Shown one piece after another: positions 2,544 to 23,169 of a stretch of DNA of 64,000 bases (its first letter is position 1; the number at the start of each line of letters is the position of its first letter). The DNA comes from an uncultured Planctomycetales bacterium (GTDB taxonomy: Bacteria; Omnitrophota; Gorgyraeia; Zapsychrales; JANLHA01). Below the pieces are notes generated by a model. It searched no databases. It was not told the origin of the DNA and worked only from the letters and a program-made list of their open reading frames with translations. The translations under genes were made by a program, and so were the position numbers. The stretch covers positions 91,631 to 155,630 of the forward strand of contig CAYYRJ010000001.1 of NCBI GenBank assembly GCA_964474085.1. The letters run 5' to 3'.

Positions 2544-5500
2544 ATGTTTTTGTCTTTCGCACATCGTCCCAAATTCACTCTGATTCGCAAAGTCGTTTCT
2601 TCTATCATGACGGTTGCGTTTTTGACAAGTTTGTCGACACCCGCCGGCGCGCAGTTGGCGAGTTTATTGCCTACGCCGGGCAGTGCGGTAACAATCTCAC
2701 CAGTCTTTGTTCCTCCGACGCTCAAAGGTCTTAATATTCATCCCGAGAATCCGTTTCTTTTTGACTTTATCGTCGGGCGTGGTGATGAAAAGGTTCAGGG
2801 TGAGGCGCTTAAGGCCGAGTCGGAAAAGTTAGTCAAGTTTTTCTTAACCGCGATGACGATTCCCGATAAGGAAGCGTGGGTCAATCTTTCTCCGTATGAA
2901 ACTAATCGAATCATCCCCGACGCCTTAGGCAAGACAGAGATGGGCAAGGTCATGCTCGAGCAGGATTATCTTTTAAAACAGTTGGCCTCGTCGCTCACCA
3001 ATCCTGACACGGATTTGGGCAAAAAATTTTGGACGAATGTGCGCGCTAAAGCCAAAGAAAAATTTGGAACCACAGATATCCCGATGAGTACCTTTAATAA
3101 GGTCTGGATTGTTCCGGCCAAAGCTGAAGTCGCCGAAAAAGACGGAAAAGTGTTTATTACCAAAAACAGTTTGAAGGTGATGTTGGAGGAAGACTATGTA
3201 GCGATGTCCAATCAGAAGGACATCGCGGAATCCCGTGCACCTGCACGGGATCAAGCTCCGTTGACGGCTGAGGCAATGGCTTCGCGCGGAGCGCTCAGCA
3301 CTCCTTCGGACGTTGCGTCCTCAGTCGCGTTAGACTCTGGACGCTCGACGTTAGAAAAAACGGCCAACGTCCAACCTCCAACGTCTAGCCTCTCATCTGA
3401 AGTATTCCGTTCCACGATTCTGCCGTCGATCGAAAAAGAAATCAACGAAGGAAAGAACTTTGCCGCGGTGCGCCAGATTTATGATGCGGCGATTCTCGCC
3501 GTCTGGTACAAGAGCGCATTAAAAGAATCTTTGCTCGGAAAGATTTATGCCGACAAAAGCAAAGTCAAAGGCATTGAGACCGACGCGGTTGGTTTTAAAG
3601 AAGAAGTTTACAAGCAGTATGTCGCCGCCTTCAAAAAAGGCGCGTACAATATGATCAAAGAAGATTTTGACATGACTAAAGACGAGTCTGTCCCCACACG
3701 CTATTTTTCGGGTGGGATGTCGACAGCGTATCCTGCTGGCGTTGCAGTAAGTTCTGGAGTAACTGAGAGTGAAGCTAATCTTAGTACTGATGATGTAATT
3801 GTACAAGTGGTGGGTACTGAAGGACCTGAAGCTCCCGTCGTTGCTCAAGCTGCCGCCGCTCAATCCGCCGCCAGCGCGGTGGAGGATAATTTAGATAAAT
3901 ATGTGATGGATTTGCGGGCAGAAGGTTTGTCGTATGAGCAAATGTATAGGGCATTTGAAAGCCGCTACAACACCAACAGAAGGTTATTGCAGGATGTTGC
4001 TAATAATTTCCTTTTTACAAAGGATGAAAAAACCGCTGCACCGCTGGCCGCAGATTATAAACAGGCGTACGAAATGGCGCTTGCCCAGCTTTCAGAACTT
4101 GACAATCTCTTTTTGCTTTTTTTCGAAGATGTGAACAAGAGAATTAATGCATTAAAAGCCGAAGGCCAAAGCGAAACGCAAGCAATAAATGACGTCTTAG
4201 AAAAAGAAGTTCAAAGGATAGAAAACATCCAAAAAATAGAGCAAGAGCGTTTGAAGGAAAGAGCCGAAAGGTTGGTAGAATTAAGAGGAAAAGTTGAGAA
4301 TTTGTTTCCTGAGATTGAAAAAGAATTAGTTCAAATACAAACAACCGTAACAGCGAGTCTTGCTGCCGACGCTGATCAATCTCAAAAAGACGCGGCAATT
4401 CGTTCTGAAATTCAGAGACGATATGACGCGCTTAAGGCACGAATAGAACAGCGTGTTAGGCAAATCAATTTTGGCAAAGATGTAAAGACGACGAACATCC
4501 TGCCCGGACAAGCTTTGCCTAGAGCGATATCAGAACTTTCTCTGCAAGATCAGATACGTTATCAACTTTTTCCAGAATTACAAAAACAAATGGAAAAGAT
4601 GACTCTCAGTAACCCTTCTGCCAACGATAAATTTGACCGAGCCCTCAAGGCCGCGAAAGAAGAAACGATCAAAAGAACTCTCGCCGCTTCAAGCGCGATC
4701 GATAAGCCTCAAATAGCAATTACAGGTGGTACGATTGAAATTATTTTTGCTAACGGGGAAAGTGCTAGATATCAACTGCCTACGGATCTTGCGGTCAGGA
4801 GTGTTTTTCCACTGCGGGTTAAGGCCGAGGATTTTTTTGCAGCAATTTCCATTAAGGGGGATTCGCAAAATAAAAATTATCGAATTTTGATTTTGAATAA
4901 AAATGGTCAAAGGGTTGACACCGTTGGGAAGGCAACGGATCAAGTGATTGCGGCTGCGGAATTCGCCCTAGAGTCGATCAAAGCTGCTCATAAGCAAGAA
5001 AGATTTGTTAAGCTGATTTTAAGCAAGACGCCAGAATTTGCCATCCCTCAAGGTAAAGAAAATGCCACAGATTTGGCTAAGAAAATGCTCAAGGGCTGGG
5101 AAAAAATCGCCGCCTCGAGCAGTTTGGAAGATGAGGCATTAAAGCAGAAGGCAGAAGTGCAATTGCGCAATGATTTAGATTTGCCAGGTGATGCAAGTAT
5201 TGATGTAGTGATAGCTGAATATTTGAAAAATAAAAAGGGGTCAGATGAAGTTGCGTTTAATATTAAGTTTTATAATCAGGGAGATTATCCTGGCGGGATA
5301 GAAGGATTTTATGAGGACTTGGTTATTGCCAGAATGCAAGATTTGCCGGAATATCAAGAGCAAATGGATCCTGAAATGGCTGAACTTTTAGCCGCTGGCC
5401 GAAAGATTATAGATGACGAATTTTCTGATGTCCCCAGTTCGATGCCGGCAGGTGAGCAAAAATCCTCGTCGCCTCTTAAGCCGGTCGGTGGTATCAACTT

Positions 5501-5747
5501 TGACCCGACTTTGATGAATCTTCAAGTCAAGCGTGACAAAAACGGCGTTCCGCTACCGGTATTTCAACAGGATTTGCCCAATATCAATATCGAAGGACTT
5601 TATCCGGTGATTATAAATATCGCGCCGGCAACGCTGGCGAACTTTCCTCTTTTAAGTAAGGCTGAGGAAGAAAAGCAAAGAATCCCGTCGGTCAAAGACG
5701 ATATATCTCCTGTGGATCGGCAAAAATTGGTGGGTCGGGCAGGATAA
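2544..5747 (+). CDS. Large secreted modular protein, paralog 1 of 4: conserved N-domain, coiled-coil-rich core, conserved C-terminal tail
   Basis: RBS gaaggagg precedes ATG 2544 (the ORF track starts at TTG 2526). Signal-peptide-like N-terminus. The N-domain motifs NPFLFDFIV, WVNLSPYE, IIPDALGKTEMG, FNKVWIVP, NEGKNFAAVRQIY and YFSGG are shared with the genes at 11559, 15877 and 19720. The C-terminus GGINFDPTLMNLQVKRDKNGVPLPVFQQ...YPVIINIAPA is shared as well. The core is charged and coiled-coil-like (EKEVQRIENIQKIEQERLKERAERLVELRGKVENL...). Confidence 0.75.
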   Translation: MFLSFAHRPKFTLIRKVVSSIMTVAFLTSLSTPAGAQLASLLPTPGSAVTISPVFVPPTLKGLNIHPENPFLFDFIVGRGDEKVQGEALKAESEKLVKFFLTAMTIPDKEAWVNLSPYETNRIIPDALGKTEMGKVMLEQDYLLKQLASSLTNPDTDLGKKFWTNVRAKAKEKFGTTDIPMSTFNKVWIVPAKAEVAEKDGKVFITKNSLKVMLEEDYVAMSNQKDIAESRAPARDQAPLTAEAMASRGALSTPSDVASSVALDSGRSTLEKTANVQPPTSSLSSEVFRSTILPSIEKEINEGKNFAAVRQIYDAAILAVWYKSALKESLLGKIYADKSKVKGIETDAVGFKEEVYKQYVAAFKKGAYNMIKEDFDMTKDESVPTRYFSGGMSTAYPAGVAVSSGVTESEANLSTDDVIVQVVGTEGPEAPVVAQAAAAQSAASAVEDNLDKYVMDLRAEGLSYEQMYRAFESRYNTNRRLLQDVANNFLFTKDEKTAAPLAADYKQAYEMALAQLSELDNLFLLFFEDVNKRINALKAEGQSETQAINDVLEKEVQRIENIQKIEQERLKERAERLVELRGKVENLFPEIEKELVQIQTTVTASLAADADQSQKDAAIRSEIQRRYDALKARIEQRVRQINFGKDVKTTNILPGQALPRAISELSLQDQIRYQLFPELQKQMEKMTLSNPSANDKFDRALKAAKEETIKRTLAASSAIDKPQIAITGGTIEIIFANGESARYQLPTDLAVRSVFPLRVKAEDFFAAISIKGDSQNKNYRILILNKNGQRVDTVGKATDQVIAAAEFALESIKAAHKQERFVKLILSKTPEFAIPQGKENATDLAKKMLKGWEKIAASSSLEDEALKQKAEVQLRNDLDLPGDASIDVVIAEYLKNKKGSDEVAFNIKFYNQGDYPGGIEGFYEDLVIARMQDLPEYQEQMDPEMAELLAAGRKIIDDEFSDVPSSMPAGEQKSSSPLKPVGGINFDPTLMNLQVKRDKNGVPLPVFQQDLPNINIEGLYPVIINIAPATLANFPLLSKAEEEKQRIPSVKDDISPVDRQKLVGRAG

Positions 5748-5784
5748 GGAAATGCTTCAAATTGTTCTTAAGTCTCTTCGTGTT

Positions 5785-9018: not shown

Positions 9019-9573
9019 ATGATGATTCTAGGGATTCTTTTGGGGTTAGTTGTCGTTGTCGGTTTGGTTTTGATCGGGATTTATAATAATCTTGTCGCCT
9101 TGCGCGAAAGCGTCAAAAACGGCTGGTCTCAAATTCAGGTCCAGCTTAACCGCCGCCATGATTTGATCCCTAATCTTGTCGAGACAGCCAAGGGTTATTT
9201 GAAACACGAAAGTTCGACTCTTGAGGCGGTCATCAAAGCGCGGCAGATTGCGGTTGATGCTTCGTCGATCAAAGATAAGCAAGCCGCCGAAAACATGTTG
9301 ACCTCAACTCTGCGCAGTTTGTACGCTGTTACCGAGAATTATCCGGACCTTAAAGCCAATGCCCAGATGATCCGTTTGCAGGAAGAGATCACCTCGACCG
9401 AAAATCGCATCGCCTTTGCCCGTCAATATTACAATGATCAGGTCAATAGTCTAAATGTTGCGGTACAGTCTTTCCCTAATAATATGATTGCCAATTCTTT
9501 TCATTTCGAAAAAGCGGAATTTTTTCAAGTCGATGATCCGGCTGTGGCCAAAGCTCCGGAAGTCAGATTCTAA
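9019..9573 (+). CDS. lemA: LemA family membrane protein
   Basis: RBS aaggagg. N-terminal TM helix followed by the LemA signature NLVALRESVKNGWSQIQVQLNRRHDLIPNLVETAKGY. Confidence 0.8.
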   Translation: MMILGILLGLVVVVGLVLIGIYNNLVALRESVKNGWSQIQVQLNRRHDLIPNLVETAKGYLKHESSTLEAVIKARQIAVDASSIKDKQAAENMLTSTLRSLYAVTENYPDLKANAQMIRLQEEITSTENRIAFARQYYNDQVNSLNVAVQSFPNNMIANSFHFEKAEFFQVDDPAVAKAPEVRF

Positions 9574-9583: not shown

Positions 9584-11332
9584 ATGGCGTATTCATTTAC
9601 CCAAATTGAAAAAGAAAAAAGTCGCACGATCACTGCGGCTTTTTTCTTTTTGGTGTTTGTTTATTTTGCCGGGATTTGGGTCATTGCCTTATTAATTAGA
9701 AATTTTTGGTTTTTTCAAAGTCAATTTGATTCCCGACATGTCGTTTTTTCGGATCAATCTTTTGTTTGGTTAGGTTGGTTGGACAGTTTTTATATTGCGT
9801 TTTGGTCTTTTGTTGTCGCAGGGGCCCATTGGTTCTTTGCCTCGTTGGGCTTAGTCGAACGGCTCAACGGTGTTTTTAATGCGAAGCCGCCTGACAGCAA
9901 TGATCCTGATGAGAAAATGTTTCAAAATATTGTTGAGGAAGTTTCGGTAGCTACCGGCGGGGTTCCCATTCGTCCGATGATAATCCCCAGCATGATGCTC
10001 AATGCTTGCGCTTATGCCGACGGGAATTCTGTCCCGGTCATTGCGGTGACCAAGGGACTTCTTTCAAAATTAAATCGCAATCAATTGGAAGCTGTCGTAG
10101 GTCATGAGGCCGCGCATGTTGTTAGCGAAGATTGTCAAAGCACGACGATTATAAGTGCGATGTTTGAAATTTTTGGCGCGGCTTTGATGGCGGGACAAAC
10201 CATTGCCGAGGGGGCGTTTGGAGCAAATAAAAGAGAAGACCGCAGTTGGGGGGTCAGTGGCAATTTCCCGTCGGGTGGTGGCAGAGGATCAGGACAAGGT
10301 GCTTTTTTTATCGTATTTGTGGTGATTATTATTTTTATCATTTGGCTCGTAAAAAGTTTGGCGCTCTTGATGCGAATGTTTATTTCCCGCCAGCGCGAGT
10401 ACCGTGCGGACGCGACCGCCGTGCGGTTGACCCGCAACCCCCAAGCCTTGGCCGAGGCTTTGTATATTATCGGTCACCGTCGGCATTCGCTCTATGAAGG
10501 GGAAGATTCTTTGCAAAGTTTATTTATCATAAACCCCGCCGAGTCGATTTTAAATGACCGCGAGGGTGTTGTCGCGGATTTGTTCTCAACGCATCCGCCA
10601 CTGCAGGAGCGGATCACAATCCTTTTGTCTATGGCCAATAGCAGTCAGGAGGTTTTAGAGAACACTCTCAAAAATGTCACGGACAAAGAAGAACAACAAT
10701 TGCAAGAGCGGCAAAAAGTTTTTGGTCAGGCTCAAGGCGGTTTGTGGTACGTCCAGACGCCGGGGAACAATTGGTCGGGGCCGCACAATATAAGTGCGAT
10801 GTTAGCTTTTGAATGGCTTGTGCCCCAGACTCGGGTTCGTAAAATGGGCGAGAACACGGTTATGCCCGTTTCGAGTATTGAAAATTATATGACCGCGCAT
10901 AAAGAGACATTAAAAAGTCATCCGGCGTTGACTTGCCCCTCGTGCAGCGGGACGATGGCAGAAATCCTTTATGAGGGCATCAAAATTCTGGAGTGTCAAC
11001 AATGTCACGGCGTTTTGGTCAATGAAGAAAAAATCAGTATGATTTTGGCACGTAAAGACAAGACTTTTGACAGCCGTATTAAGCAAATGGCAAGGACTTT
11101 GCTCGAGGAAAAACAATTGTCGATTAAGGATAGCAGTCTGTCTTTTGAGTCACAGCGAATGTATCGCTGCGATCAGTGCAAAAACAATCCGCACAAAATG
11201 CGGCGGCGAATTTTTAACCGTTATTTTCCTGTTGAGATTGATAAATGCCAGCAGTGCGGCTTGACGTGGTTTGATAAAGATGAGTTGGAAGTTATGCAAT
11301 GCCTGTATGAAATGCGAAATGCGCAACTTTAG
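9584..11332 (+). CDS. M48-family (HtpX-like) zinc metallopeptidase with two C-terminal zinc-ribbon modules
   Basis: N-terminal TM segments, HEXXH (GHEAAHV), a later TM hairpin and an Ala-Glu region. The C-terminus carries two Cys4 ribbons (CPSCSG...CQQCHG and CDQCKN...CQQCG). Sits directly downstream of lemA. Confidence 0.7.
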   Translation: MAYSFTQIEKEKSRTITAAFFFLVFVYFAGIWVIALLIRNFWFFQSQFDSRHVVFSDQSFVWLGWLDSFYIAFWSFVVAGAHWFFASLGLVERLNGVFNAKPPDSNDPDEKMFQNIVEEVSVATGGVPIRPMIIPSMMLNACAYADGNSVPVIAVTKGLLSKLNRNQLEAVVGHEAAHVVSEDCQSTTIISAMFEIFGAALMAGQTIAEGAFGANKREDRSWGVSGNFPSGGGRGSGQGAFFIVFVVIIIFIIWLVKSLALLMRMFISRQREYRADATAVRLTRNPQALAEALYIIGHRRHSLYEGEDSLQSLFIINPAESILNDREGVVADLFSTHPPLQERITILLSMANSSQEVLENTLKNVTDKEEQQLQERQKVFGQAQGGLWYVQTPGNNWSGPHNISAMLAFEWLVPQTRVRKMGENTVMPVSSIENYMTAHKETLKSHPALTCPSCSGTMAEILYEGIKILECQQCHGVLVNEEKISMILARKDKTFDSRIKQMARTLLEEKQLSIKDSSLSFESQRMYRCDQCKNNPHKMRRRIFNRYFPVEIDKCQQCGLTWFDKDELEVMQCLYEMRNAQL

Positions 11333-14500: not shown

Positions 14501-15785
14501 TGCCGGCCAACGGCTTTTAGCGTTATTAGACAAAGAGTTTGAATCAAGCAAAGTTATTGAGCAAGTCATACATTCTTTGGGGCGACTTAAAGAATATCAG
14601 GCGCAAGAGCCATTAATTAAGATGCTTTTTAGCTATAGCGAATTAGAGATCAGTGCGTATCGGGCATTGCGTCAGATTGGTGGCCCAAAGGCTAACTTTA
14701 TTATTTCTGTTGTTGAGAAAATAAAAAGCCAAAATCCTGATCTTTTGGATAGCGAGATTTTGGGAGTGTTATTGCCCAAAGTTTTTCTAATGTCCATTGA
14801 AGGATATGATTTTGTTGCGACCTATACGCCGCAAGAAGGTCATATGTCAACGCAGGTACAAGAAGGCTTTTATTCAGATGCCCAAGGATATGTGCCTTTT
14901 AGGCATGTATTTGGACCATACTTTATCCAGACCAAAGAGGGAATTCCTGTGAACGTGGTTAGAGGAAAAAAGACTTCGAATCCGATCGCCATTTTTTCAG
15001 CAGAATTTATTGATTCGTTGCGCAGTTCTCTTCAACCTCATTTAGAAGATGACCAATTGGGCGTTTCGCTGAGACTTGGTGAACCCCAGGAAGAAATCCA
15101 GAGTTCTTCCTCGGCCGCGATTGATATAGAAAAAATCATTACAGATATTAAATCTGGTGATCAACTGGCCGTTGAGACTTTGATTAGTTTGTTGGCAAAT
15201 GAATCTCGTTCTTATCGTCAGCGTGTTAGAGCAGTATTAAAAGATTTAAATATCAATGACCTTCGGATTGATCTTTATGACAGCGTTGAACAACGATTGC
15301 GGGCAACGGTTCCTGCCGATGTGGATTTTGATGTTTTTGGGCAAAAAGTCCTTGAAGCGTATCGCATTGTTTTGGCTGGGGATGATTTTAGTGCTGAATA
15401 TGTTCAAAGGATGCTAACAGAATATGATTGGAGCGGAATATATGATACTTATAGCTGGCCGGAGGATCCAAACAATCGCGAGTATCAAACTCTTGATCCG
15501 GACAGCTTGACTATTACAAGGATACCAAAGACTACAGATAGCGGTGTCGCCTCGGCCGCGGTGACCCAACCCGTCGGTGGTATCGACTTTAATTCGGCGG
15601 CGCTGGATTTGCAGATTAAACGCGACGGCAATGGTGTTGCGCTGCCCTTGCCGCAGCAGACAATTCAAAATATGAAAATCGACGGATTTTATCCGGTTAT
15701 TATCAACATCGCGCCGGTCAATATTCCGATGCTTTTGGGACAAAAGACACAAAAAGAGCCGATACAGTTAAGTGCGTTAAGATAA
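11559..15785 (+). CDS. Large secreted modular protein, paralog 2 of 4: conserved N-domain, HEAT-repeat core, conserved C-terminal tail
   Basis: RBS aggaggg. Signal peptide MKKNLFMTNHAFARRVTSFFMLIVFSLTTILLPAQASAQS. The N-domain is as in paralog 1. HEAT/PBS-lyase-like repeats are present (LGEIGGQKASELL, LGHFNDQNVKGQLLSLLSD, LGWLQDSRAGQRLLALL). The C-terminal tail is GGIDFNSAALDLQIKRDGNGVALPLPQQ...YPVIINIAPV. The first roughly 770 codons are nearly identical to the next gene. Confidence 0.75.
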   Translation: MKKNLFMTNHAFARRVTSFFMLIVFSLTTILLPAQASAQSIGIPGVNLPAVGTMLGLSESFQPAIIRGMTVYPDNPLKFDFIVNTGDKNLKGQALEKESQKLIKYFLASLTTPENEFWVNLSPYESGRIIPEALGTTEMGRDMLAQDYILKQLTASLLYPEKDLGNKFWQRVHEKAKKLYGVSEVPVDTFNKVWIMPDKAAVYENDNRVFVVERHLKVMLAEDYEKNLTPPSPLFKKAGESGSTQLTPSLDKEGEGGVLKNNIPSQIMRELIIPEIEKEVNEGENFAVVRQIYNSMILATWYKKRLKESLLGQVYVNQNKVKGIDLADKATKQKIYEQYLAAFKKGVYNYIKEDVDALTNEPIPTKYFSGGLTAGAVTQAALTEYNGELSRQPKVVSAAVTQPLTDKGEDVVVSSTLVENANQAQAAAATPIKSVLTDLRTNASFAIPKSSFMDTKLYQLTGAASTWSVSMGGIMERIQGFGLGAETWAIEAAEFATYHPGTVLLGAIAFYAVASFDPIGYFRNKVDFNLRQANALKDDDQKRYLYLDRIVARGQEVVPDLLNQFQQPDASQAKVRDIAYVLGKLKVAQAVEPLISKFSQNIAVDEIVVALGEIGGQKASELLAQQLLEKGSLRSIAVAEGLVKLGVDRGKEFLFEMLKSTDIKLRTAARVSLSRLEINDAPAVIIYDEVYQRLQAVVSPENITLQYNFASEFSAAYAIALSGGDFYVTYVSEATVLRPVKENSSLNADYEKVIVPAKLVIVKEGNKSSPSSASSGIDKLQLTGAVGDLTVSAQGVSELAKDSLTERTSDSSSSAITRWLDNSYLWNVRQLLPRFPTEKRLKALGNLVRLNDSRAIESIRPLLGDDNSQIKARAAYALGHFNDQNVKGQLLSLLSDPWTEVRKAARGALTRFGTETNELIDANIKALSASKEARLEAANELAQLGRGRDDVYNALLSLLESIDSDDRLVGANALGWLQDSRAGQRLLALLDKEFESSKVIEQVIHSLGRLKEYQAQEPLIKMLFSYSELEISAYRALRQIGGPKANFIISVVEKIKSQNPDLLDSEILGVLLPKVFLMSIEGYDFVATYTPQEGHMSTQVQEGFYSDAQGYVPFRHVFGPYFIQTKEGIPVNVVRGKKTSNPIAIFSAEFIDSLRSSLQPHLEDDQLGVSLRLGEPQEEIQSSSSAAIDIEKIITDIKSGDQLAVETLISLLANESRSYRQRVRAVLKDLNINDLRIDLYDSVEQRLRATVPADVDFDVFGQKVLEAYRIVLAGDDFSAEYVQRMLTEYDWSGIYDTYSWPEDPNNREYQTLDPDSLTITRIPKTTDSGVASAAVTQPVGGIDFNSAALDLQIKRDGNGVALPLPQQTIQNMKIDGFYPVIINIAPVNIPMLLGQKTQKEPIQLSALR
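11587..13889. repeat. Copy A of a 2.3-kb near-identical direct repeat (tandem segmental duplication)
   Basis: Matches 15905-18207 at a constant offset of 4318 bp. The embedded antisense ORFs translate identically. Only one a/g difference was noticed, near the 3' boundary. Confidence 0.8.
12241..12336. repeat. Palindromic element of about 95 bp inserted in-frame within a CDS (translates as LTPPSPLFKKAGESGSTQLTPSLDKEGEGGVL)
   Basis: ctccccccagccccctctttaaaaaagcgggggagagcggg...accccctcttt-agat-aaagaggggg (a perfect 10-bp stem) aagggggag. Near-identical copies lie at 16559-16654 and 20404-20499. Confidence 0.6.
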
Positions 15786-15876
15786 ATTATCAATAAGAAG
15801 AATATCTTTCGTGGCAGATTTTTTATTATCGTTCTAAAAAATTCCTCATTTTTCATTTAAACAGGAGGCACACATT

Positions 15877-18800
15877 ATGAAAAAAAACTTTTTTATGATG
15901 AATTATGCGTTTGCGCGTCGGGTAACGAGTTTTTTCATGCTCATTGTCTTTTCGCTGACCACGATTCTTTTGCCGGCTCAAGCCAGCGCCCAGAGCATTG
16001 GCATTCCCGGCGTTAATCTTCCGGCTGTCGGAACAATGCTTGGATTAAGCGAAAGTTTTCAACCGGCGATTATCCGTGGGATGACGGTGTATCCGGACAA
16101 TCCTTTGAAATTTGATTTTATTGTCAATACTGGCGACAAAAACCTTAAAGGCCAGGCGCTTGAAAAAGAGTCGCAGAAGCTGATCAAATATTTTTTGGCG
16201 TCGTTAACGACACCGGAGAATGAGTTTTGGGTCAATCTCTCGCCGTATGAAAGCGGACGGATTATTCCTGAAGCTTTGGGTACAACCGAAATGGGCCGGG
16301 ATATGTTGGCGCAGGATTATATTCTTAAGCAGTTGACTGCGTCTTTGTTGTATCCGGAAAAAGATTTAGGCAATAAATTCTGGCAACGAGTGCATGAAAA
16401 AGCCAAAAAGCTTTATGGGGTCAGCGAAGTTCCAGTGGACACTTTTAATAAAGTGTGGATTATGCCGGACAAAGCAGCGGTTTACGAAAACGATAATCGG
16501 GTTTTTGTCGTCGAGCGGCATTTGAAGGTGATGTTGGCGGAGGACTATGAGAAAAATTTAACTCCCCCCAGCCCCCTCTTTAAAAAAGCGGGGGAGAGCG
16601 GGAGCACTCAACTAACCCCCTCTTTAGATAAAGAGGGGGAAGGGGGAGTTCTGAAGAATAACATTCCCTCCCAAATCATGCGCGAACTGATCATCCCCGA
16701 GATCGAAAAGGAAGTCAACGAAGGGGAGAATTTTGCTGTTGTGCGACAGATTTATAATTCGATGATTTTAGCGACGTGGTACAAAAAACGTTTGAAAGAA
16801 AGTCTTTTGGGCCAAGTGTATGTTAACCAAAACAAAGTTAAGGGCATTGACTTAGCCGATAAAGCGACAAAACAAAAAATTTACGAACAGTATTTGGCCG
16901 CGTTTAAGAAGGGTGTTTACAACTATATTAAGGAAGATGTCGACGCTCTGACTAACGAACCGATTCCAACCAAGTATTTTTCGGGCGGGTTGACCGCAGG
17001 TGCTGTGACACAAGCGGCTTTGACTGAATATAATGGTGAACTTTCCCGCCAACCGAAAGTTGTCTCTGCCGCGGTCACACAGCCGCTGACAGACAAGGGA
17101 GAGGACGTCGTTGTTTCCTCGACGCTGGTAGAAAATGCCAATCAAGCCCAAGCCGCCGCTGCAACTCCAATCAAGTCCGTTTTGACAGACCTCAGAACAA
17201 ACGCTTCTTTCGCAATTCCGAAATCATCGTTTATGGATACTAAACTTTATCAACTCACCGGAGCAGCAAGTACGTGGTCTGTTTCCATGGGAGGGATAAT
17301 GGAGAGAATTCAAGGTTTTGGACTTGGCGCAGAGACGTGGGCGATAGAGGCTGCCGAGTTTGCAACATATCATCCGGGAACAGTTTTGCTAGGCGCTATC
17401 GCGTTTTATGCAGTTGCCTCTTTTGACCCGATTGGGTACTTTAGAAATAAAGTGGATTTTAACTTAAGGCAAGCGAATGCACTTAAGGATGATGATCAAA
17501 AACGTTATCTTTATTTAGATAGAATTGTTGCGCGGGGACAAGAAGTTGTTCCTGACTTATTGAATCAATTTCAACAGCCCGACGCTAGTCAGGCTAAGGT
17601 ACGTGATATTGCTTATGTATTGGGAAAACTTAAAGTTGCCCAAGCTGTTGAGCCGTTGATTTCTAAATTTAGTCAAAATATTGCAGTTGATGAAATTGTT
17701 GTAGCTTTAGGAGAAATCGGAGGACAGAAGGCTAGTGAACTGCTAGCACAACAGCTTTTAGAGAAAGGTTCACTTAGAAGCATCGCTGTTGCAGAAGGTT
17801 TAGTGAAATTGGGTGTTGATCGTGGCAAAGAATTTTTGTTTGAAATGTTAAAGAGTACGGATATTAAGCTGCGGACAGCGGCCAGAGTTTCTTTAAGTCG
17901 TTTGGAGATCAATGATGCGCCCGCGGTTATAATTTATGATGAGGTTTATCAAAGACTGCAAGCAGTAGTAAGTCCTGAAAATATCACTCTTCAATATAAT
18001 TTTGCTTCTGAATTTTCTGCGGCTTATGCGATTGCTTTGAGTGGAGGGGATTTTTACGTTACGTATGTTTCCGAGGCAACAGTTCTTCGTCCTGTTAAGG
18101 AAAATTCTTCCCTGAATGCTGATTATGAGAAAGTTATTGTGCCGGCAAAATTGGTAATTGTTAAAGAAGGTAATAAGTCTAGCCCTTCCTCCGCCTCGTC
18201 GGGGATTATGGAAAAGGCCAAGGCTCACGCTGTCATTTATTTCGGCCGTAAAGGTTTTAAAAAATCAATGCCTTATTTATTTAAGCTTTTAGGGCATAAA
18301 GATGAAAAGATTCGCTCAGAAGCTGAAGCAGTTTTAGTTAAGTTAGGGGCAACAAAAGAGCAAATGGTTGGTGCGTATATTATGGTTTTGAAAGGTTCTC
18401 CTAGGAACGGGGATCAGAAAAATGTTATTAAAAAATTGGGTGAAATTGGAGATAAAAAAACAATTGAGGTATTGTTGCCCTACTTAAAATTTAGTTGGTA
18501 CGAGTTTGAAGCCCAAACAGCTTTGGAAAAATTAGGCGTAACAAAAGAGCAAATAGTGGATTGGTATATTGTAGCTTTGAGTCAGGAACGAGATTATTAT
18601 AAGGATTATATTATTATAAGATTGGGTGAGCTTGGAGATCCGCGGGCAATTCCGGTATTATTGCCATATTTAGAAAGTAACGGTTTCACTGTAGCTAAAA
18701 TAGCTTTGACAAAGTTAGGCGTCACAAAAGAGCAAATGTCTGATGTTGTGAGTGAGCAGTTGGGAAGAGAATTTGTTGTTTATGATAAAAAACTCGATGA

Positions 18801-19602
18801 TAAGTATGTTTTAGATTTTAAAAGAAAACTTATTGGAAGATTAAATGAATTGGGGGATCCACGAGCAATTAAGCACTTATTGCCGTATTTAAATAGTAAC
18901 AATTACGCTGAAGCCCAAATAGCTTTGGAAAAATTAGGAGCAACAAAAGAGCAATTAACAGATGCGTATATTGTAGCGTTAGAAAACCCTTCTTTAGATA
19001 TTTCAATTGCTGCAGCAAATGCATTAGCTGACTTAGGGGATCAACGTTGCGTAGAGTTTTTGATTGAAACGTTGAAAAAAAGAAATGTGGTCAAGTCGTT
19101 AAATCGTCTGGGGATCCGTGACCCTAGGGTTGATCGTTTTAATGAGGTTGTTAGAAGAGTCCCTAGTAGTAATTTAATTGTTAAAGCGTATAACATTATT
19201 GAATCTGGTAATGATTTTATAGTTATTCATCACCCAGCTACGTATGAGATGTCAAATTATGACTGGTATGATCCGAACGGATTTAATTACGGACCTATTC
19301 CAATAGAGGTTTCTCCTTCTTCTGATTCACTTCAAATAATTCCAAAGGGTTCGCAGCCACCAGCAGCCTCGGCTGCTGTGACCACACCCGTTGGTGGTAT
19401 CGACTTTAATTCGGCGGCGCTTGATTTGCAGATTAAACGCGACAAAAAGGGCGTCCCGTTGCCTTTGCCCCAGCAGACGATACAAAACATGAAAATCGAC
19501 GGGTTTTATCCGGTCATTATCAATATCACGCCGGTCAATATTCCGATGCTTTTGGGACAAAAGACACAAAAAGAGCCGCAGCAGTTAAGTGCGTTAAGGT
19601 AA
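15877..19602 (+). CDS. Large secreted modular protein, paralog 3 of 4: N-terminus identical to paralog 2, different PBS-lyase HEAT-repeat core, conserved C-terminal tail
   Basis: RBS aggagg precedes ATG 15877. Identical to paralog 2 up to about aa 770, then at least five tandem repeats of about 46 aa (LGEIGDKKTIEVLLPYL..., LGELGDPRAIPVLLPYL..., LNELGDPRAIKHLLPYL..., LGxTKEQ). The C-terminal tail is GGIDFNSAALDLQIKRDKKGVPLPLPQQ...YPVIINITPV. Confidence 0.75.
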   Translation: MKKNFFMMNYAFARRVTSFFMLIVFSLTTILLPAQASAQSIGIPGVNLPAVGTMLGLSESFQPAIIRGMTVYPDNPLKFDFIVNTGDKNLKGQALEKESQKLIKYFLASLTTPENEFWVNLSPYESGRIIPEALGTTEMGRDMLAQDYILKQLTASLLYPEKDLGNKFWQRVHEKAKKLYGVSEVPVDTFNKVWIMPDKAAVYENDNRVFVVERHLKVMLAEDYEKNLTPPSPLFKKAGESGSTQLTPSLDKEGEGGVLKNNIPSQIMRELIIPEIEKEVNEGENFAVVRQIYNSMILATWYKKRLKESLLGQVYVNQNKVKGIDLADKATKQKIYEQYLAAFKKGVYNYIKEDVDALTNEPIPTKYFSGGLTAGAVTQAALTEYNGELSRQPKVVSAAVTQPLTDKGEDVVVSSTLVENANQAQAAAATPIKSVLTDLRTNASFAIPKSSFMDTKLYQLTGAASTWSVSMGGIMERIQGFGLGAETWAIEAAEFATYHPGTVLLGAIAFYAVASFDPIGYFRNKVDFNLRQANALKDDDQKRYLYLDRIVARGQEVVPDLLNQFQQPDASQAKVRDIAYVLGKLKVAQAVEPLISKFSQNIAVDEIVVALGEIGGQKASELLAQQLLEKGSLRSIAVAEGLVKLGVDRGKEFLFEMLKSTDIKLRTAARVSLSRLEINDAPAVIIYDEVYQRLQAVVSPENITLQYNFASEFSAAYAIALSGGDFYVTYVSEATVLRPVKENSSLNADYEKVIVPAKLVIVKEGNKSSPSSASSGIMEKAKAHAVIYFGRKGFKKSMPYLFKLLGHKDEKIRSEAEAVLVKLGATKEQMVGAYIMVLKGSPRNGDQKNVIKKLGEIGDKKTIEVLLPYLKFSWYEFEAQTALEKLGVTKEQIVDWYIVALSQERDYYKDYIIIRLGELGDPRAIPVLLPYLESNGFTVAKIALTKLGVTKEQMSDVVSEQLGREFVVYDKKLDDKYVLDFKRKLIGRLNELGDPRAIKHLLPYLNSNNYAEAQIALEKLGATKEQLTDAYIVALENPSLDISIAAANALADLGDQRCVEFLIETLKKRNVVKSLNRLGIRDPRVDRFNEVVRRVPSSNLIVKAYNIIESGNDFIVIHHPATYEMSNYDWYDPNGFNYGPIPIEVSPSSDSLQIIPKGSQPPAASAAVTTPVGGIDFNSAALDLQIKRDKKGVPLPLPQQTIQNMKIDGFYPVIINITPVNIPMLLGQKTQKEPQQLSALR
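15905..18207. repeat. Copy B of the 2.3-kb direct repeat
   Basis: See 11587-13889. Confidence 0.8.
16559..16654. repeat. In-frame palindromic element, copy 2
   Basis: Same sequence as 12241-12336. Lies inside the duplicated block. Confidence 0.6.
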
Positions 19603-19669: not shown

Positions 19670-19719
19670 GCCGTCCGGTTGCATAGTAAGAGAGTGACCT
19701 ATATACTTATACTATTATT

Positions 19720-22700
19720 ATGTCAATTTCTTCCAAACAGATAGCTCGTTTTTTGCGCAAGTCCTTATTTTGGCTTCTGATCGTTAGCTTTGCGCTAAAC
19801 ACCACCTTGCCGGCGTATGCCAAAGGGACGGAGGGTTTTTCTTTGCCTAGCGTCGGAGAGCAGGTTGCCTTAAGCTCTGCGTTTTCGCCAGTATTGCTAA
19901 AGGCGGTCAAAGTCAATCCGGATAATCCGTTTCAATTCGATTTTATCGTCGATGTCGGAAGCTCCAATTTGAAAGACGATGAATTAAAAGCGCAAGCGCA
20001 AAAACTGATCCGTTACTTTTTAGCGTCTTTGACAACGCCCGAAAATGATTTGTGGGTCAACCTTTCTCCGTATGAAAAAGAACGAATTATCCCAGAGTCT
20101 TTTGGTACAACTGAAATGGGTCGCGATCTTTTGGCAGAGGATTATTTGCTTAAGCAGATCACCGCGACTTTGCTTTCCCCGCAAGGGGAGCTGGGGAAAA
20201 AATATTGGGAAAAGGTTCATCGAGAAGAGACGTTAGACGTTAGACGCTTGACGCTGGCAAATAATTTAACCCCTAACCCCCAACCCCAAGCCACCAATAA
20301 TTTTAATAAAGTCTGGATCGTCCCGCAAAAGGCTGTTGTCTACGAGAATGGTACTACTGCTTACGTCGACGAAACGCATTTGAAAGTGATGATGGAAGAA
20401 GATTTAACTCCCCCCAGCCCCCTCTTTAAAAAAGCGGGGGAGAGCGGGAGCGTTCAATTAACCCCCTCTTTAGATAAAGAGGGGGAAGGGGGAGTTCTGA
20501 CAACCATCGTCCAGCGTCCATCGTCCATCGTCTCTGGTCAGCCTCGGCCGGATGGCCTCGGCATTCCCTCGGACGTTGCGTCCTCGGTCATACGTGAGTT
20601 CATCATCCCAGAGCTTGAGAAAGAAGTTAACGAAGGTAAAAATTTTGCGCCTTTGCGTCAGATTTACAATTCACTAATTCTTGCAAATTGGTATAAGAAG
20701 CGATTAAAAAACAGCATTCTTTCGCAGGTCTATGTTGATAAGAACAAGCTAGCCGGCATTGACTTAGATGACAAAGAACAAGCTCAGAAAATTTATGATC
20801 AGTATGTCGCAGCTTTTAAAAAAGGCGTTTATAACTATATCAAAGAAGACTATGACCCAGCGACGCAAGAAACCGTTCCGCGTAAATATTTTTCGGGCGG
20901 AATGGGTTTCGCCAGCTCGAGCGCGGCGACGCAATACCGTCAAGGTTTGCCTGAAAATGCTGGCGTTGCAAGCTCTGGATTGCGTAAAATTACGGTCGAT
21001 ACTCGACCATATGACACGAAAGAATTGGAAGACAAAGAAGTTCTTAAGCGGTTTGCAAAAATACAAGCTCAAAATAATGATAAAGCTAGACTTGCGCAGA
21101 GCAAGAATCGTGTTTACGAGGTGTTTAATTTGTCTGGGTTAAAACACATTGATTTTGCTTCTATGTATGAAGCATCTCAATCGGTTGCGCATACGCCAGC
21201 GTGGGGGGGTGTCGTTGCGATTCAGCCGTTATTGACCAAGTTTATCGACGATGTTTTTGAAAAAGCTTTGGATTTTGATGATCCGAAAGCAACTCAGATT
21301 GTATTTTTGCAGGCTGGGGCCCAACCGATTTATGAGACTGCGGTTTTAATGGCCAAAGTTACTGGAGTTTTTCCTGCCGAAAACCTTAAGAGCGTTTGGG
21401 CCACAATGGGAAATTATCGGCAAATGAAGGACGATAAAGAACAACGCTTACTATTTATTAAGTATTTGCATGATCAGGGAGTTTTGTCGCCGAAGACGAA
21501 ACATTTATTAATTGTTGATACCGACGCTGGAATTGTTGAAATCGGCACAGCAGCAATTTTTGCAAAAACACTTTTGGATAATGATGTTCTTCAAACGGCA
21601 AATCAGCGGTTTGGATTAAACATCAAGCTTTTTAATGAAGTTGGAGGTGAAAACACTTTAGATTTTTCTTATTTGTATAGCGCCTATGTTGCAAGTCCTG
21701 CAAAACGTGAAATTCATATTAAGGCTGAAAAAATATCTGGGCAAATAGACGCTAAATTACGCATTGAAGGATATAACGACAATACATCGGACATAGATCA
21801 AGCCATTCGCATTTCTAACCTATGGTATCCTGTTGACAGTTTTGTAAAAACGGCGAATATTTCTGATCGTTTTTCTTTAGATCAGGAAGGGCGATCCCAG
21901 GTGACTTTTCTGGCGCCCAATAAGCAACCTTATGATAATTTGAAGATATTAAATTTACTCCGTGCGGTTGAGGATATTGGTTTGTTAATAGGGACGCTTA
22001 ACGTTATGAGTGCCAAGGGTTTTGATGTGGCAGAGCAGGCGGACCAGTTGATTGAAAGGCTAGAGGACGTTTTTAAAACAAGCGGGGTCACGCAAGCGGA
22101 TATCGATGCTTCCAAACCGCAGCAAGGTTATCGGGCGTCTTCGTCGATCGCGTTTGGGACATCCGCAAAGATGCTTTTAAGTCCCCAAGATTTGGCCCGA
22201 TCAGAGGTTGTTAGCGTTCTACATACAATTGAGGATAGTGTAACAGGAAAACGTCGGATGACTTTAGAAATTAAGTCGCCCGATGGTAAAACTTTTATTT
22301 TAAAACTTTATAGTAAAAGCGAAGATTTCAATAATGAATCGTTGGGGTATGCTGTGGCCGAGAAACTTGGGATGCATGTGCCTAAGCATCAAGAGTTTGA
22401 AGAGTCGTCTGATTTTGATGGATTAGTCAAACAAGCCGTTAAAGTTGGGAATATTCTGCCGCAAATGGCTGAGCCTTACGGTTGGGCACGCTTGATTGAG
22501 CAGGTACAAGAATATAAAACGGATAAACCTTATAATGGATTAGAAGAATTGGTCGTTTTTACACATTTGATGCATTTTGAAGATTACGATAAATTAAAAC
22601 CGCAACAAATTTTTTCAAGGAATATATTTTTCACAAAAGACGGTAAGTATGTCGTTTATGATTATGAAACGGAGTGGGATGTAGATTTTTCAAATAATTA

Positions 22701-23169
22701 TTTTTCTAAGTATAAAGATGTAGCCTATAGAATTGATCAGGGCAGATTAGAAAATGTTATTAAAGTAGCCCGCAAATTAACGGCTGATGATTTTCGAGAT
22801 CTTCTGGTGACTGATCAAAGCCGTCAAAATTTTCAAAAACGGGTTGAGAGCTTCGAGGAGGATATGATTCGACAATTGGGATATTTCCGCGATGAACCTC
22901 AGGCCGTTCGACTCTTGGAGATCGTCAAAAACATGCCGTCATCTTCGGATGTCGGCGGGATTGATTTGACGGCTGGCAAAACGCCGTTGGATATCCGCGC
23001 CCAAAGCGAGCCGGTCGAGTTTAATTTTGACCCTCAACAGCTGCAAAATTTGCAATTCGACGGCTTGGTACCGGTGATTATTAACATTGCCCCGGTTATT
23101 AATCTTCCGCAATTTTTAACCGAAAAACCTGTCTTTCAATCCGCCGGGCAGTTAAGCAGATCCAATTGA
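19720..23169 (+). CDS. Large secreted modular protein, paralog 4 of 4: conserved N-domain, distinct globular core (possibly kinase-like), conserved C-terminal tail
   Basis: Signal peptide MSISSKQIARFLRKSLFWLLIVSFALNTTLPAYAKG. N-domain motifs NPFQFDFIV, WVNLSPYE, IIPESFGTTEMGRDLL, FNKVWIVP, NEGKNFAPLRQIY and YFSGG. The C-terminus is GGIDLTAGKTPLDIRAQSEPVEFNFDPQQLQNLQFDGLVPVIINIAPV. About 50% identical to paralogs 2 and 3 in the N-domain. Confidence 0.75.
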   Translation: MSISSKQIARFLRKSLFWLLIVSFALNTTLPAYAKGTEGFSLPSVGEQVALSSAFSPVLLKAVKVNPDNPFQFDFIVDVGSSNLKDDELKAQAQKLIRYFLASLTTPENDLWVNLSPYEKERIIPESFGTTEMGRDLLAEDYLLKQITATLLSPQGELGKKYWEKVHREETLDVRRLTLANNLTPNPQPQATNNFNKVWIVPQKAVVYENGTTAYVDETHLKVMMEEDLTPPSPLFKKAGESGSVQLTPSLDKEGEGGVLTTIVQRPSSIVSGQPRPDGLGIPSDVASSVIREFIIPELEKEVNEGKNFAPLRQIYNSLILANWYKKRLKNSILSQVYVDKNKLAGIDLDDKEQAQKIYDQYVAAFKKGVYNYIKEDYDPATQETVPRKYFSGGMGFASSSAATQYRQGLPENAGVASSGLRKITVDTRPYDTKELEDKEVLKRFAKIQAQNNDKARLAQSKNRVYEVFNLSGLKHIDFASMYEASQSVAHTPAWGGVVAIQPLLTKFIDDVFEKALDFDDPKATQIVFLQAGAQPIYETAVLMAKVTGVFPAENLKSVWATMGNYRQMKDDKEQRLLFIKYLHDQGVLSPKTKHLLIVDTDAGIVEIGTAAIFAKTLLDNDVLQTANQRFGLNIKLFNEVGGENTLDFSYLYSAYVASPAKREIHIKAEKISGQIDAKLRIEGYNDNTSDIDQAIRISNLWYPVDSFVKTANISDRFSLDQEGRSQVTFLAPNKQPYDNLKILNLLRAVEDIGLLIGTLNVMSAKGFDVAEQADQLIERLEDVFKTSGVTQADIDASKPQQGYRASSSIAFGTSAKMLLSPQDLARSEVVSVLHTIEDSVTGKRRMTLEIKSPDGKTFILKLYSKSEDFNNESLGYAVAEKLGMHVPKHQEFEESSDFDGLVKQAVKVGNILPQMAEPYGWARLIEQVQEYKTDKPYNGLEELVVFTHLMHFEDYDKLKPQQIFSRNIFFTKDGKYVVYDYETEWDVDFSNNYFSKYKDVAYRIDQGRLENVIKVARKLTADDFRDLLVTDQSRQNFQKRVESFEEDMIRQLGYFRDEPQAVRLLEIVKNMPSSSDVGGIDLTAGKTPLDIRAQSEPVEFNFDPQQLQNLQFDGLVPVIINIAPVINLPQFLTEKPVFQSAGQLSRSN
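20404..20499. repeat. In-frame palindromic element, copy 3 (about 97% identical to copy 1 within otherwise diverged flanks)
   Basis: ctccccccagccccctctttaaaaaagcgggggagagcgggagcgttcaattaaccccctctttagataaagagggggaagggggag. The flanking nucleotides are not conserved with paralog 2. Confidence 0.6.

Follow-up and report, generated by a model that had tools for sequence, protein, structure and literature searches.

A large Omnitrophota protein family with paired conserved ends, exchangeable cores, and predicted Sec-type export

The DNA analyzed here is a stretch of 64,000 nucleotides (hereafter the window) covering positions 91,631 to 155,630 of contig CAYYRJ010000001.1, from assembly GCA_964474085.1 of an uncultured Planctomycetales bacterium that GTDB places in the Omnitrophota. 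It encodes four large proteins, P1 to P4, that begin with a common domain of approximately 350 residues (the N-domain), end with a common segment of approximately 60 residues (the tail), and differ in the core in between. The original prediction, made from the window sequence, had described them as giant secreted proteins in which conserved ends surround swapped cores. Here, we describe these genes, the family to which they belong, and its distant relatives, and we weigh what such an architecture could be for.

Results

Four genes with common ends

Four open reading frames (ORFs) on the plus strand, of 1073, 1409, 1241, and 1149 amino acids (aa), were recovered at the positions originally predicted. 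P1 (2544–5747) is 1067 aa long from its ATG, an upstream TTG at 2526 giving the length of 1073 aa. Its signal peptide, predicted to be of the Sec type by manual n/h/c criteria (2544–2651, aa 1–36, ending PAGA/Q, where the slash marks the presumed cut), is followed by the N-domain, or carrier domain (2652–3716, aa 37–391, with YFSGG at its end), by charged helical and globular modules, and by the tail (5487–5663). The latter runs from GGINFD to PVIINIAP, with the linker KSSSPLKP (aa 974) ahead of it and a variable extension of 27 aa behind it.

P2 (11559–15785) comprises 1408 aa, or 1409 aa from an alternative start at 11556. A predicted signal peptide (11559–11672, aa 1–38, ending AQASA/Q) and the N-domain (11673–12671, aa 39–371, again closing with YFSGG) precede three HEAT-containing modules split by Ser/Ala linkers. 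The HEAT-repeat cargo (13233–14684) consists of an NblB-like part at aa 559–685 and HEAT_2/HEAT_PBS repeats at aa 835–1042, and the tail (15576–15752; GGIDFN to PVIINIAP) follows the linker VASAAVTQP at aa 1331. P3 (15877–19602; 1241 aa) has aa 1–777 in common with P2, including the N-domain (15991–16989, aa 39–371), and continues with four HEAT_PBS-type repeats (aa ~800–1090, nucleotides 18274–19146) and the tail (19393–19569), whose DNA is 88.7% identical to that of the P2 tail from the linker AASAAVT at 19366 onward. P4 (19720–23169; 1149 aa) has a signal peptide (19720–19821), the N-domain (19822–20901, aa 35–394, with a terminal YFSGG), an orphan globular core whose two modules are separated by the linker RASSSIA (aa 807), and a tail of the “F.FDP” flavor (22954–23130; GGIDLT...EFNFDPQQLQNL...PVIINIAP) preceded by the linker PSSSDV.

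Pairwise comparison bore out both common ends. BLASTP aligned the N-terminal regions with 40 to 53% identity over approximately 400 aa (E 1e-89 to 1e-139) and the C-terminal ends with 38 to 45% identity over 55 to 96 aa. The sequence blocks that had been singled out earlier (NPxxFDFIV, WVNLSPYE, TEMG..., FNKVWI, EKEVNEG.NFA..RQIY, and YFSGG) are invariant columns of the four-way alignment. Only these four ORFs matched when profiles of the two ends were run against the six-frame translation of the window, with E values of 1e-158 to 1e-176 for the N-domain and 1e-24 to 1e-30 for the tail.

Family extent and strict pairing of the two ends

P1 to P4 are members of a very large, so far uncatalogued protein family of Candidatus Omnitrophota. 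An N-domain profile built from the four window copies matched at least 562 proteins (E down to 1e-152), and nearly all of the matches listed are “hypothetical protein” entries of Candidatus Omnitrophota/Omnitrophica. Among contigs representing one genome per species, at least 575 stretches encode the domain, often several per genome; the best 80 of these all come from Omnitrophota metagenome-assembled genomes, some of them labeled “uncultured Planctomycetales.” The tail profile, run against 1.84 billion representative proteins, matched 6,620 protein clusters, 3,996 of them at E ≤ 1e-10, and the match always lies at the extreme C-terminus, in proteins of up to 5,808 aa.

The two ends belong together. 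Among the best 147 tail matches, all but three of the proteins exceeding 1,000 aa have the N-domain as well. In 78 genome loci, each complete N-domain ORF ends in the tail (70 of 70, with lengths from 620 to more than 3,700 aa), and the pairing is therefore regarded as strict; ORFs with only one of the two modules are located at contig ends or frameshifts. Tandem arrays of two or three family genes on the same strand are common in these loci. The arrangement of P1 to P4 is thus typical of the family and phylum-wide, and no local four-gene oddity.

N-domain and tail in sequence and structure libraries

The statement of the original prediction that neither conserved module can be assigned to a named family holds. 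Searches of Pfam (2025 copy) and NCBIfam (2026) with whole proteins, isolated cores, the N-domain alone, 31 isolated tails at E ≤ 1, and the Streptomyces homologs described later returned no match to either module, known sorting signals included; the only matches in the whole window proteins were to HEAT_2/HEAT_PBS, in P2 and P3. PDB sequences gave no match to the N-domain profile, and the AlphaFold model of the P2 N-domain gave none to solved structures.

AlphaFold2 modeled the P2 N-domain with a predicted local distance difference test (pLDDT) score of 71 and a predicted template modeling score of 0.69. In this model, as in that of a full-length homolog of 572 aa, the fold is of the alpha/beta type and includes long helices and two long beta-hairpins. 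The N-domain blocks of the 572-aa homolog reached pLDDT values above 90 and its tail 82 to 93, the core between them being disordered. The tail opens with GGID[FL], holds the motif PVIINI.P, and is followed by 5 to 30 variable residues. Tails do not contain a hydrophobic segment of helix length with a cluster of Arg or Lys.

Signal peptides and predicted topology

The N-terminal signal peptides that had been proposed for all four proteins are recognizable in each: residues rich in K/R come first, then a hydrophobic stretch, then a site of the AxA type (AGA/Q, ASA/Q, ASA/Q, and AYA/K); the hydrophobic stretch of P1 is weaker than those of P2 to P4. The same Sec-type pattern occurs in 61 of 70 family members, with a K/R-rich n-region, an h-region of about 18 to 22 aa, and a (P)xxYAQ or AxA c-region. 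K/R residues precede the hydrophobic helix and none follow it, and 50 of the 70 members have no further hydrophobic segment. The window proteins have zero to two weak ones, with none in P1 and P4. This pattern agrees with published DeepTMHMM statistics for long Omnitrophota proteins. The near-universal Sec-type signal peptides, together with homology of the N-domain to Actinomycetota proteins that also bear signal peptides, uphold the idea of export, and the N-domain would accordingly be expected to work outside the cytoplasm.

A Tat signal was rejected, as RR occurs in P2 and P3 only and a twin-arginine motif is not conserved in the family. The lack of a lipobox Cys led to rejection of a lipoprotein signal as well. 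A weakly hydrophobic segment of P2 and P3, GTVLLGAIAFYAVASFDPIG, is located between the N-domain and the first HEAT module (~13059–13118 in P2 and 17377–17436 in P3). If GTVLLGAIAFYAVASFDPIG spans a membrane, the HEAT modules of these two proteins would face the cytoplasm.

Contents of the cores

The cores had been described as unrelated. This is true across family members generally, where they are completely different, but it fails for P2 and P3, which are near-identical for 777 aa. The two genes share a block of 2394 bp with 98.8% DNA identity (11497–13889 and 15819–18207) that spans 60 bp of upstream sequence, the N-domain, and approximately 400 aa of core, up to codon 777. P2 and P3 are thus a recent partial duplication, and their cores are not unrelated.

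For the individual cores, the earlier assignments fared unevenly. HEAT repeats in P2 were confirmed by matches to HEAT_2/HEAT_PBS. The tandem PBS-lyase repeats of P3 are indeed of the HEAT_PBS type, but there are four copies with a period of 61 to 73 aa, not five of ~46 aa. What had been called a coiled coil in P1 is visible as no more than a charged, helical-looking stretch (aa ~531–650). The suggestion of kinase-like motifs in P4 has as its only backing a subthreshold match of 47 residues to HipA_C (E 0.013; score 15.6 bits, cut-off 30.5). PDB sequences gave no match to the P4 core, and among 5.8 billion proteins it has one homolog, a 97% identical ortholog in a sister genome.

Elsewhere in the family, the cores hold recognizable domains. 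In a first set of homologs, these were PGK, PGI, a metallophosphatase, an S-adenosylmethionine-dependent methyltransferase, and a receiver domain, besides coiled coils. When 27 complete family members were surveyed with Pfam, the cores yielded glutamate dehydrogenase, enolase, and a full-length PGK (E 2.7e-107), the glycogen and sugar enzymes glycogen debranching enzyme, GH77, starch synthase, phosphoglucomutase, and UDP-glucose pyrophosphorylase, as well as RmlD/epimerase, CofD, ROK, PP2C, NUDIX, receivers, HATPase_c, phosphoribosyltransferase, and LysM. The enolase cargo of a Candidatus Aceula lacicola member (L070:9986-14701) is permuted, the Enolase_C TIM barrel (aa 946–1260) preceding Enolase_N (aa 1279–1373).

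Linker motifs and module exchange

Short motifs mark the module boundaries. In 82,739 core residues from the 70 proteins, D-x-A-M occurred 102 times, compared with 9.1 ± 2.9 in shuffled sequences, and SSP[IVL] 46 times, compared with 2.8 ± 1.5; reversed and control patterns in the same proteins were not enriched. Inspection by eye located the motifs after the N-domain, between modules, and 0 to 20 aa before the tail, and they lie 5 to 15 aa upstream of Pfam domain starts. Examples are SSSPI at 1103, ahead of a PGK domain at 1118–1531 and a further SSPI at 1574; SSPI at 1458, ahead of a receiver domain at 1464–1555 and SSSPV at 1587; and DRAM at 1143, ahead of a receiver domain starting at 1153. 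The window proteins use the variant SS[SA][AP]-hydrophobic, at aa 715, 858, and 974 of P1, aa 767–777, 811, 1182, and 1331 of P2, aa 1164 of P3, and aa 399, 807, and 1074 of P4.

The identity between P2 and P3 stops right after the linker SSPSSASSGI (aa 767–777) and restarts exactly at (V/A)ASAAVT before the tail. These breakpoints fall on linkers, which indicates that cassettes are exchanged at them. Together with the coupling of the two ends in 70 of 70 genes and the differing cores, this agrees with the earlier view of exchangeable cassettes between common ends. Linker codons differ between sites, so the motif is conserved at the peptide level. It may serve for cleavage, docking, or modification. 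Recombination signals acting at the DNA level, and fossil or internal start codons, were rejected as explanations of the linkers, given that the codons differ and some are not start codons.

Relatives in Omnitrophota and Actinomycetota

A second, short Omnitrophota subfamily (413–426 aa) carries the domain behind a signal peptide and runs through an uninterrupted YFSGGVD[FL]R into ~95 more residues. In hhalign, the family N-domain matched this subfamily with a probability of 100% (E 3e-57), and the alignment stops at YFSGG.

More distant homologs were found in Actinomycetota. In tblastn searches with the P2 N-domain, plasmids yielded six Streptomyces genes with 23 to 28% identity over 71 to 82% of the query (E down to 1e-26), and N-domain searches of phage genomes gave no match. 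The N-domain and the Streptomyces proteins aligned in hhalign over 250 columns (probability 99.8%, E 1.3e-28), with the Omnitrophota YFSGG placed onto Streptomyces Y-I-Y-G-G-V-D-L. Four Streptomyces proteins were inspected (760–816 aa, all “hypothetical”). They start with a signal peptide and a poorly conserved region of ~350 aa, continue with a segment of the form PGG[IV]DF[TS]TLELRY..G.G.QY.F and the core FWVNLNP.EPDRI.D...GRTD.GR.LLEADL.LK..., and close with ...GGVD[FL]SK and a Pro/Thr linker. In two of the four, the C-terminus consists of LADTG, a hydrophobic helix, and RRRR, a region that the strep_LAETG model matches at E 4e-6, just short of its cut-off.

A profile of the Streptomyces domain matched 153 proteins across Actinomycetota, in genera including Streptomyces, Actinoplanes, Nonomuraea, Micromonospora, Mycobacterium, and Solirubrobacter, and some of these proteins are named LPXTG/LAETG surface proteins. 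N-terminal of the domain, several relatives carry an XOO_2897-type deaminase (PF14440; E 1.4e-17 and 6e-15), a Tox-REase-5 nuclease (PF15648; 4.4e-10), or NlpC/P60-LRAT (PF00877), and other relatives have DUF11 C-terminal of it. Sequence homology thus identifies the N-domain as an old domain that, in Actinomycetota as well, stands behind signal peptides and, in several proteins, beside toxin domains or predicted cell-wall anchors.

In toxin-bearing homologs (L112:6819-9140, P0298, P0349, P0328, and P0374, all hypothetical), the toxin domain is N-terminal, directly behind the Sec signal. The usual position of the toxin in polymorphic toxins is C-terminal, opposite to that in these actinobacterial homologs. 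L112 and P0328 end in a hydrophobic helix and a basic cluster, P0328 with an LAVTG motif, and the toxin-less relatives L113 and L114 have LADTG at their ends.

The relatives also bear on the nature of the tail. In both uninterrupted relatives, the actinobacterial proteins and the short Omnitrophota subfamily, YFSGG or Y.YGG runs directly into GGVD[FL], and in Omnitrophota and Actinomycetota alike the cargo lies directly N-terminal of the GGID[FL] hairpin. Because of this continuity, and because the modeled 572-aa homolog combines a high tail pLDDT with a disordered core, we consider the tail to be, in all probability, the closing element of the carrier, with the cargo inserted at the Gly-Gly turn ahead of it. 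The original prediction had proposed a sorting or anchoring signal; the tail is probably the last part of the carrier unit and not a free-standing tag, although evidence for this beyond the motif is thin.

Discussion

A possible carrier for exported cargo

Our preferred, still tentative, reading is that P1 to P4 are Sec-exported carrier–cargo proteins, whose destination and function we infer from the features described above. The conserved Sec-type signal peptide would carry the chain across the inner membrane. Once there, the ~350-aa N-domain may act as an extracytoplasmic carrier, the uninterrupted form of which is found in the ~420-aa Omnitrophota proteins and, by homology, in Actinomycetota. 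The ~60-aa tail would close the same unit, making the variable region a giant insertion at the Gly-Gly turn between YFSGG and GGID[FL]. This insertion may be seen as a string of independent modules, each opened by a linker (SS[AP]-hydrophobic here, D-x-A-M or SSP[IVL] elsewhere), and, as the P2/P3 breakpoints show, modules are swapped between paralogs through recombination at the linkers. The cargo in the window comprises the HEAT arrays of P2 and P3, the charged helical and globular set of P1, and the lineage-specific globular core of P4.

The family carries cytoplasm-type enzymes in Omnitrophota, and its relatives carry nucleic-acid-targeting toxins in Actinomycetota, which suggests that the handle presents cargo, or hands it over, to other cells. 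Its task would most likely concern a host or prey cell, to which cargo is held out or passed on, and not housekeeping of the producer's own envelope. The presence of distant relatives in toxin-carrying Streptomyces surface proteins suggests that the domain is probably a general handle for placing proteins outside the cell.

Several results weigh against this reading. No recognizable toxin or enzyme was found in P1 to P4 with Pfam or NCBIfam, and for enzymes that depend on ATP or cofactors, Sec would be a strange route biochemically unless another cytoplasm is their destination. All signal peptides were called by manual criteria. One or two internal hydrophobic segments, which could change the topology, are present in 20 of the 70 members, including P2 and P3 (aa 501–520). 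The placement of the tail in the 572-aa model was judged from pLDDT, and its physical contact with the N-domain is putative. Compared with the short subfamily, the tail aligns over 13 columns (E 0.017) and has no detectable homology to the post-YFSGG sequence beyond GGxD, and its best resemblance in Streptomyces, a weak one (E 0.0087, probability 4.6%), is to the GGIDF hairpin before the domain core. No N-domain or tail column discriminates between linker-motif types, whereas discriminating columns would be expected if the handle were the linker protease or receptor. Finally, no pathway is indicated by the gene neighborhoods, for no conserved neighbor that could encode a cognate machine was found in the 78 loci.

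A wider reading, which we regard as doubtful, would make the N-domain and tail the mark of a hitherto unrecognized, phylum-wide presentation or delivery route. Whole cytoplasmic enzymes, HEAT scaffolds, and perhaps giants of the “Archaeovorin” class would travel through Sec while inserted between the two parts of a carrier domain. These parts would reunite beyond the membrane, either in cis or head-to-tail in trans, where hairpin exchange could yield cargo-decorated polymers. The linkers would allow modules to be released by processing, or organized by docking, at the surface of host or prey cells or within them, and an ancient version of the route would deliver deaminase and nuclease toxins in Actinomycetota.

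Other explanations of the conserved ends

The explanation closest to the original prediction, and in our judgment an unlikely one, is that the tail is an autonomous C-terminal signal for sorting, secretion, or anchoring, as in the type IX secretion system (T9SS), with the outer-membrane machine encoded elsewhere and the N-domain a separate scaffold. The position of the tail at the extreme C-terminus in all 6,620 clusters, its strict conservation next to varying cores with just 5 to 30 variable residues after it, and the absence, beyond GGxD, of detectable homology to the uninterrupted relatives would all fit such a tag, as would the proximity of published Omnitrophota giant-protein loci to genes resembling those of type II secretion, type IV pili, and Tad systems. 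However, no catalogued sorting domain in NCBIfam or Pfam matched, the tail lacks a hydrophobic helix with a basic end, and the run of YFSGG into GGVDF in the relatives suggests one continuous unit. If the tail were a generic sorting tag, one would expect to meet it on proteins of other kinds as well, so the strict pairing, with the N-domain in every complete gene and in all but three of the >1,000-aa proteins among the best 147 tail matches, speaks against autonomy. The machine that had been proposed to lie beside family members was not found either, as no conserved candidate neighbors the family genes in the 78 loci.

Less likely again is a housekeeping role, in which the proteins would be scaffolds or a coat in the periplasm or on the surface of the producer, for example in extracytoplasmic glycogen or sugar metabolism, and would not act on other cells. 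Such a role would be consistent with the scattering of the genes among GuaB, GuaA, DnaE, and HisRS, with the one family member found within a glycogen-metabolism cluster, and with a cargo rich in glycogen and sugar enzymes. PGK, receiver/HATPase_c modules, and nucleotide-sugar enzymes, on the other hand, require ATP or NTPs and partners for which one would look only in the cytoplasm; the deaminase and nuclease toxins of the actinobacterial relatives have their targets inside other cells; and fast paralog turnover with cassette swapping suits genes of conflict or interaction better.

We consider it improbable that the proteins work like MARTX or AB toxins, as effectors that deliver and process themselves, the N-domain and tail being a translocation device and the linkers protease sites that release modules in the target. 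Conserved ends around swapped, effector-like modules, the strong enrichment of module-start motifs, and the toxin cargo of the relatives are features that one would expect of such effectors, and C39 and S8 peptidase domains have been proposed elsewhere as cutters of Omnitrophota giant proteins. Against this, P1 to P4 contain no protease domain, handle and linker type do not covary, and no similarity to RTX or translocation domains was found. Very improbable, finally, is an uncleaved N-terminal anchor that keeps the bulk of the protein in the producer's cytoplasm and tethers enzymes or HEAT scaffolds to the inner membrane: the overwhelmingly cytoplasm-type biochemistry of the cargo would suit it, and the 2026 preprint 10.64898/2026.06.07.730766 interprets many of the long Omnitrophota proteins as anchored in the membrane, with their domains in the cytoplasm, but K/R before the helix, none after it, and an AxA c-region predict an N-in/C-out orientation with cleavage, a second membrane segment is absent in 50 of 70 members, and the actinobacterial domain is flanked by a signal peptide and, for two of four Streptomyces examples, a subthreshold sortase-type anchor, which would put it outside the membrane.

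Comparison with known systems

Long and giant Omnitrophota proteins, including the “Archaeovorins,” have been described previously (10.1101/2023.11.21.568195, West-Roberts et al. 2023; 10.64898/2026.06.07.730766; PMC10066038, Seymour et al. 2023). Like the present family, the giants belong to this phylum and have an N-terminal signal peptide followed by a region “without identifiable domains.” The repertoire of “long proteins” in 10.64898/2026.06.07.730766 (PF08323, PGM, PF00072, ROK, methyltransferase, HATPase_c, and HEAT) and that of the Archaeovorins in 10.1101/2023.11.21.568195 both match the family cargo; HEAT_2, starch synthase, PGM, receiver, ROK, HATPase_c, and methyltransferase domains occur on both sides, HEAT_2 being the one found in P2 and P3. 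This match suggests that the window family either forms the short end of the Omnitrophota long-protein class or is closely akin to it. Proteins of the Archaeovorin type exceed ~30,000 aa and have many transmembrane helices, whereas the window proteins have 1067 to 1408 aa and the family reaches at least 5,808 aa. A common N-domain, a common tail, or linker motifs are not described in the searched text of the three papers, and a literature search with the motif strings returned no paper. The host-dependent or predatory lifestyle proposed for Omnitrophota in PMC10066038 would fit a hand-over of cargo to other cells.

The Actinomycetota proteins (e.g., the hypothetical proteins WP_121549542.1 and WP_251091514.1) share with the family a homologous core, a signal peptide, cargo directly before a GGID[FL] hairpin, and a ..GG-VD-F end. 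They differ in that the cargo (deaminase, Tox-REase-5, or NlpC/P60) stands before an uninterrupted domain, the PVIINI-type tail is absent, and an LAxTG-type signal, transmembrane anchor, or DUF11 follows in several; most are single-copy genes of 350 to 800 aa.

MARTX toxins have conserved N- and C-terminal regions around effector cassettes, with processed linkers in between. They and polymorphic toxins resemble the family in combining conserved trafficking parts with recombining effector modules and in occurring as multiparalog arrays. Their routes are the type I, V, VI, or VII secretion systems and not Sec, and there is no similarity in sequence or fold. Unlike MARTX/RTX proteins, the family has a signal peptide and no match to HemolysinCabind (RTX repeats) or a peptidase, and polymorphic-toxin domains as variable modules are found only in the actinobacterial relatives (PF14440, PF15648, and PF00877), not in P1 to P4.

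T9SS cargo proteins carry an N-terminal Sec signal and a conserved C-terminal domain (CTD) of 60 to 100 aa that occurs on many unrelated secreted proteins of one phylum. Their phylum is another one, their CTDs are not tied to one N-domain, and the family tail fails the TIGR04183/T9SS CTD models, in whole proteins as well as in the 31 isolated tails; PorU, PorV, and SprA are not among the annotated neighbors in the 64-kb window. The motif, helix, and basic cluster of PEP-CTERM and LPXTG signals are absent from the window tails, which match no NCBIfam sorting domain, and are present in two Streptomyces homologs. Autotransporters (type Va secretion) end in a beta-barrel of ~250 to 300 aa, compared with a tail of ~60 aa without a Pfam match. 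The beta-helical TPS domain of TpsA proteins (PF05860) is unmatched in the family, whose N-domain is modeled as alpha/beta with long helices, and no TpsB partner (ShlB/POTRA gene) is present among the annotated neighbors in the window. In flagellin, conserved N- and C-terminal segments fold together and display a hypervariable, sometimes enzymatic middle outward. The family is like flagellin in its conserved ends around a variable middle; there is no homology, the export route is another one, and there is no evidence for a filament. The N-domain and tail are thus new in being missing from current family and structure libraries, and the kind of protein, a modular exported protein with a conserved handle, is known.

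Omnitrophota are uncultured, ultra-small, and probably host-dependent bacteria. Their long and giant proteins pose the puzzle of cytoplasm-type enzymes behind signal peptides with “no identifiable N-terminal domain,” and the conserved N-domain, the C-terminal piece that accompanies it, and the enriched module-start linkers provide three searchable handles on it. The N-domain also forms an evolutionary bridge from the Omnitrophota family to toxin-bearing Actinomycetota surface proteins, and the two profiles could catalogue thousands of members. Testable predictions concern the signal-peptide cut site, linker cleavage, co-folding of the ends, and the destination of the cargo. If the ends do form a delivery or display device, this would be a new way to export modular cargo and a potential scaffold for protein display.

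A palindromic element inside the N-domain

P2, P3, and P4 contain, in frame and within a disordered loop of the N-domain, a GC-rich palindromic element of ~98 nucleotides (12238–12336, 16556–16654, and 20402–20500, all on the plus strand) that translates as LTPPSPLFKKAGESGSxQLTPSLDKEGEGGVL. It has the terminal inverted repeats AACTCCCCC/GGGGGAGTT and forms two hairpins, with an RNA folding energy of −52 kcal/mol (z −5.3). The copies in P2 and P4 are 97% identical, compared with ~68% in their flanks. The element or its 3' half also occurs in other genomes (L026:~860-960, L076:~10670-10720, and L081-L110). A metagenome scan for the 3' hairpin located 30 loci. In 21 of these it lies within N-domain genes, where it occupies two loop hot spots and occurs in either orientation; the other nine are elsewhere, including intergenic positions. 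At the same site, the P4 ortholog of a sister genome (L111, 95–97% identical) has other GC-rich hairpins. The element looks like one of the repetitive extragenic palindromic (REP) or miniature inverted-repeat transposable element (MITE) type that is tolerated in frame, for which Rickettsia palindromic elements are a known precedent.

Genomic surroundings

P1 to P4 are surrounded by housekeeping genes. Two receiver-domain proteins and a fragment of GroEL are encoded 5' of P1, genes for IMPDH, GMP synthase, LemA, and an M48 peptidase lie between P1 and P2, and DnaE, HisRS, AspRS, PhoH, RecO, SMC, DnaG, and RpoD are encoded downstream of P4. The position directly downstream of two receiver genes, pointed out in the original prediction, is real. 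It is not a conserved trait: receiver genes are the commonest neighbors in the 78 loci, and they occur within 10 kb in only 15 of these, at varying distances. The two receiver proteins in the window stand alone (1269–1742 and 1773–2360), the second with a C-terminal double zinc ribbon, and receiver domains also rank among the commonest cargo modules within family members.

The LemA gene (9019–9573) and the M48 peptidase gene (9584–11332), with C-terminal zinc ribbons, are located directly 5' of P2. This pair recurs once, in the P0112 locus, at a distance of approximately 6 kb from the family gene; in that locus, a ShlB/POTRA (TpsB-type) gene follows a neighboring ORF of 1165 aa. In the sister genome GCA_964635405.1 (L111, CAZWOH010000061.1), the P4 ortholog is ~95% identical in DNA. 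The HEAT paralog before it is single-copy there, with an N-domain 81 to 83% identical and another core, and synteny is lost right after P4, where a DNA ligase gene takes the place of DnaE. The family locus is thus a local hot spot of change.

Elsewhere in the window, three tandem paralogs of 650 to 700 aa are encoded on the minus strand of a housekeeping chromosomal region (35536–37614, 37614–39716, and 39713–41665). Each combines a beta-roll (LbR_Ice_bind) with a Peptidase_S74 intramolecular-chaperone domain at the C-terminus, as is typical of phage tail-fibre or endosialidase-like proteins.

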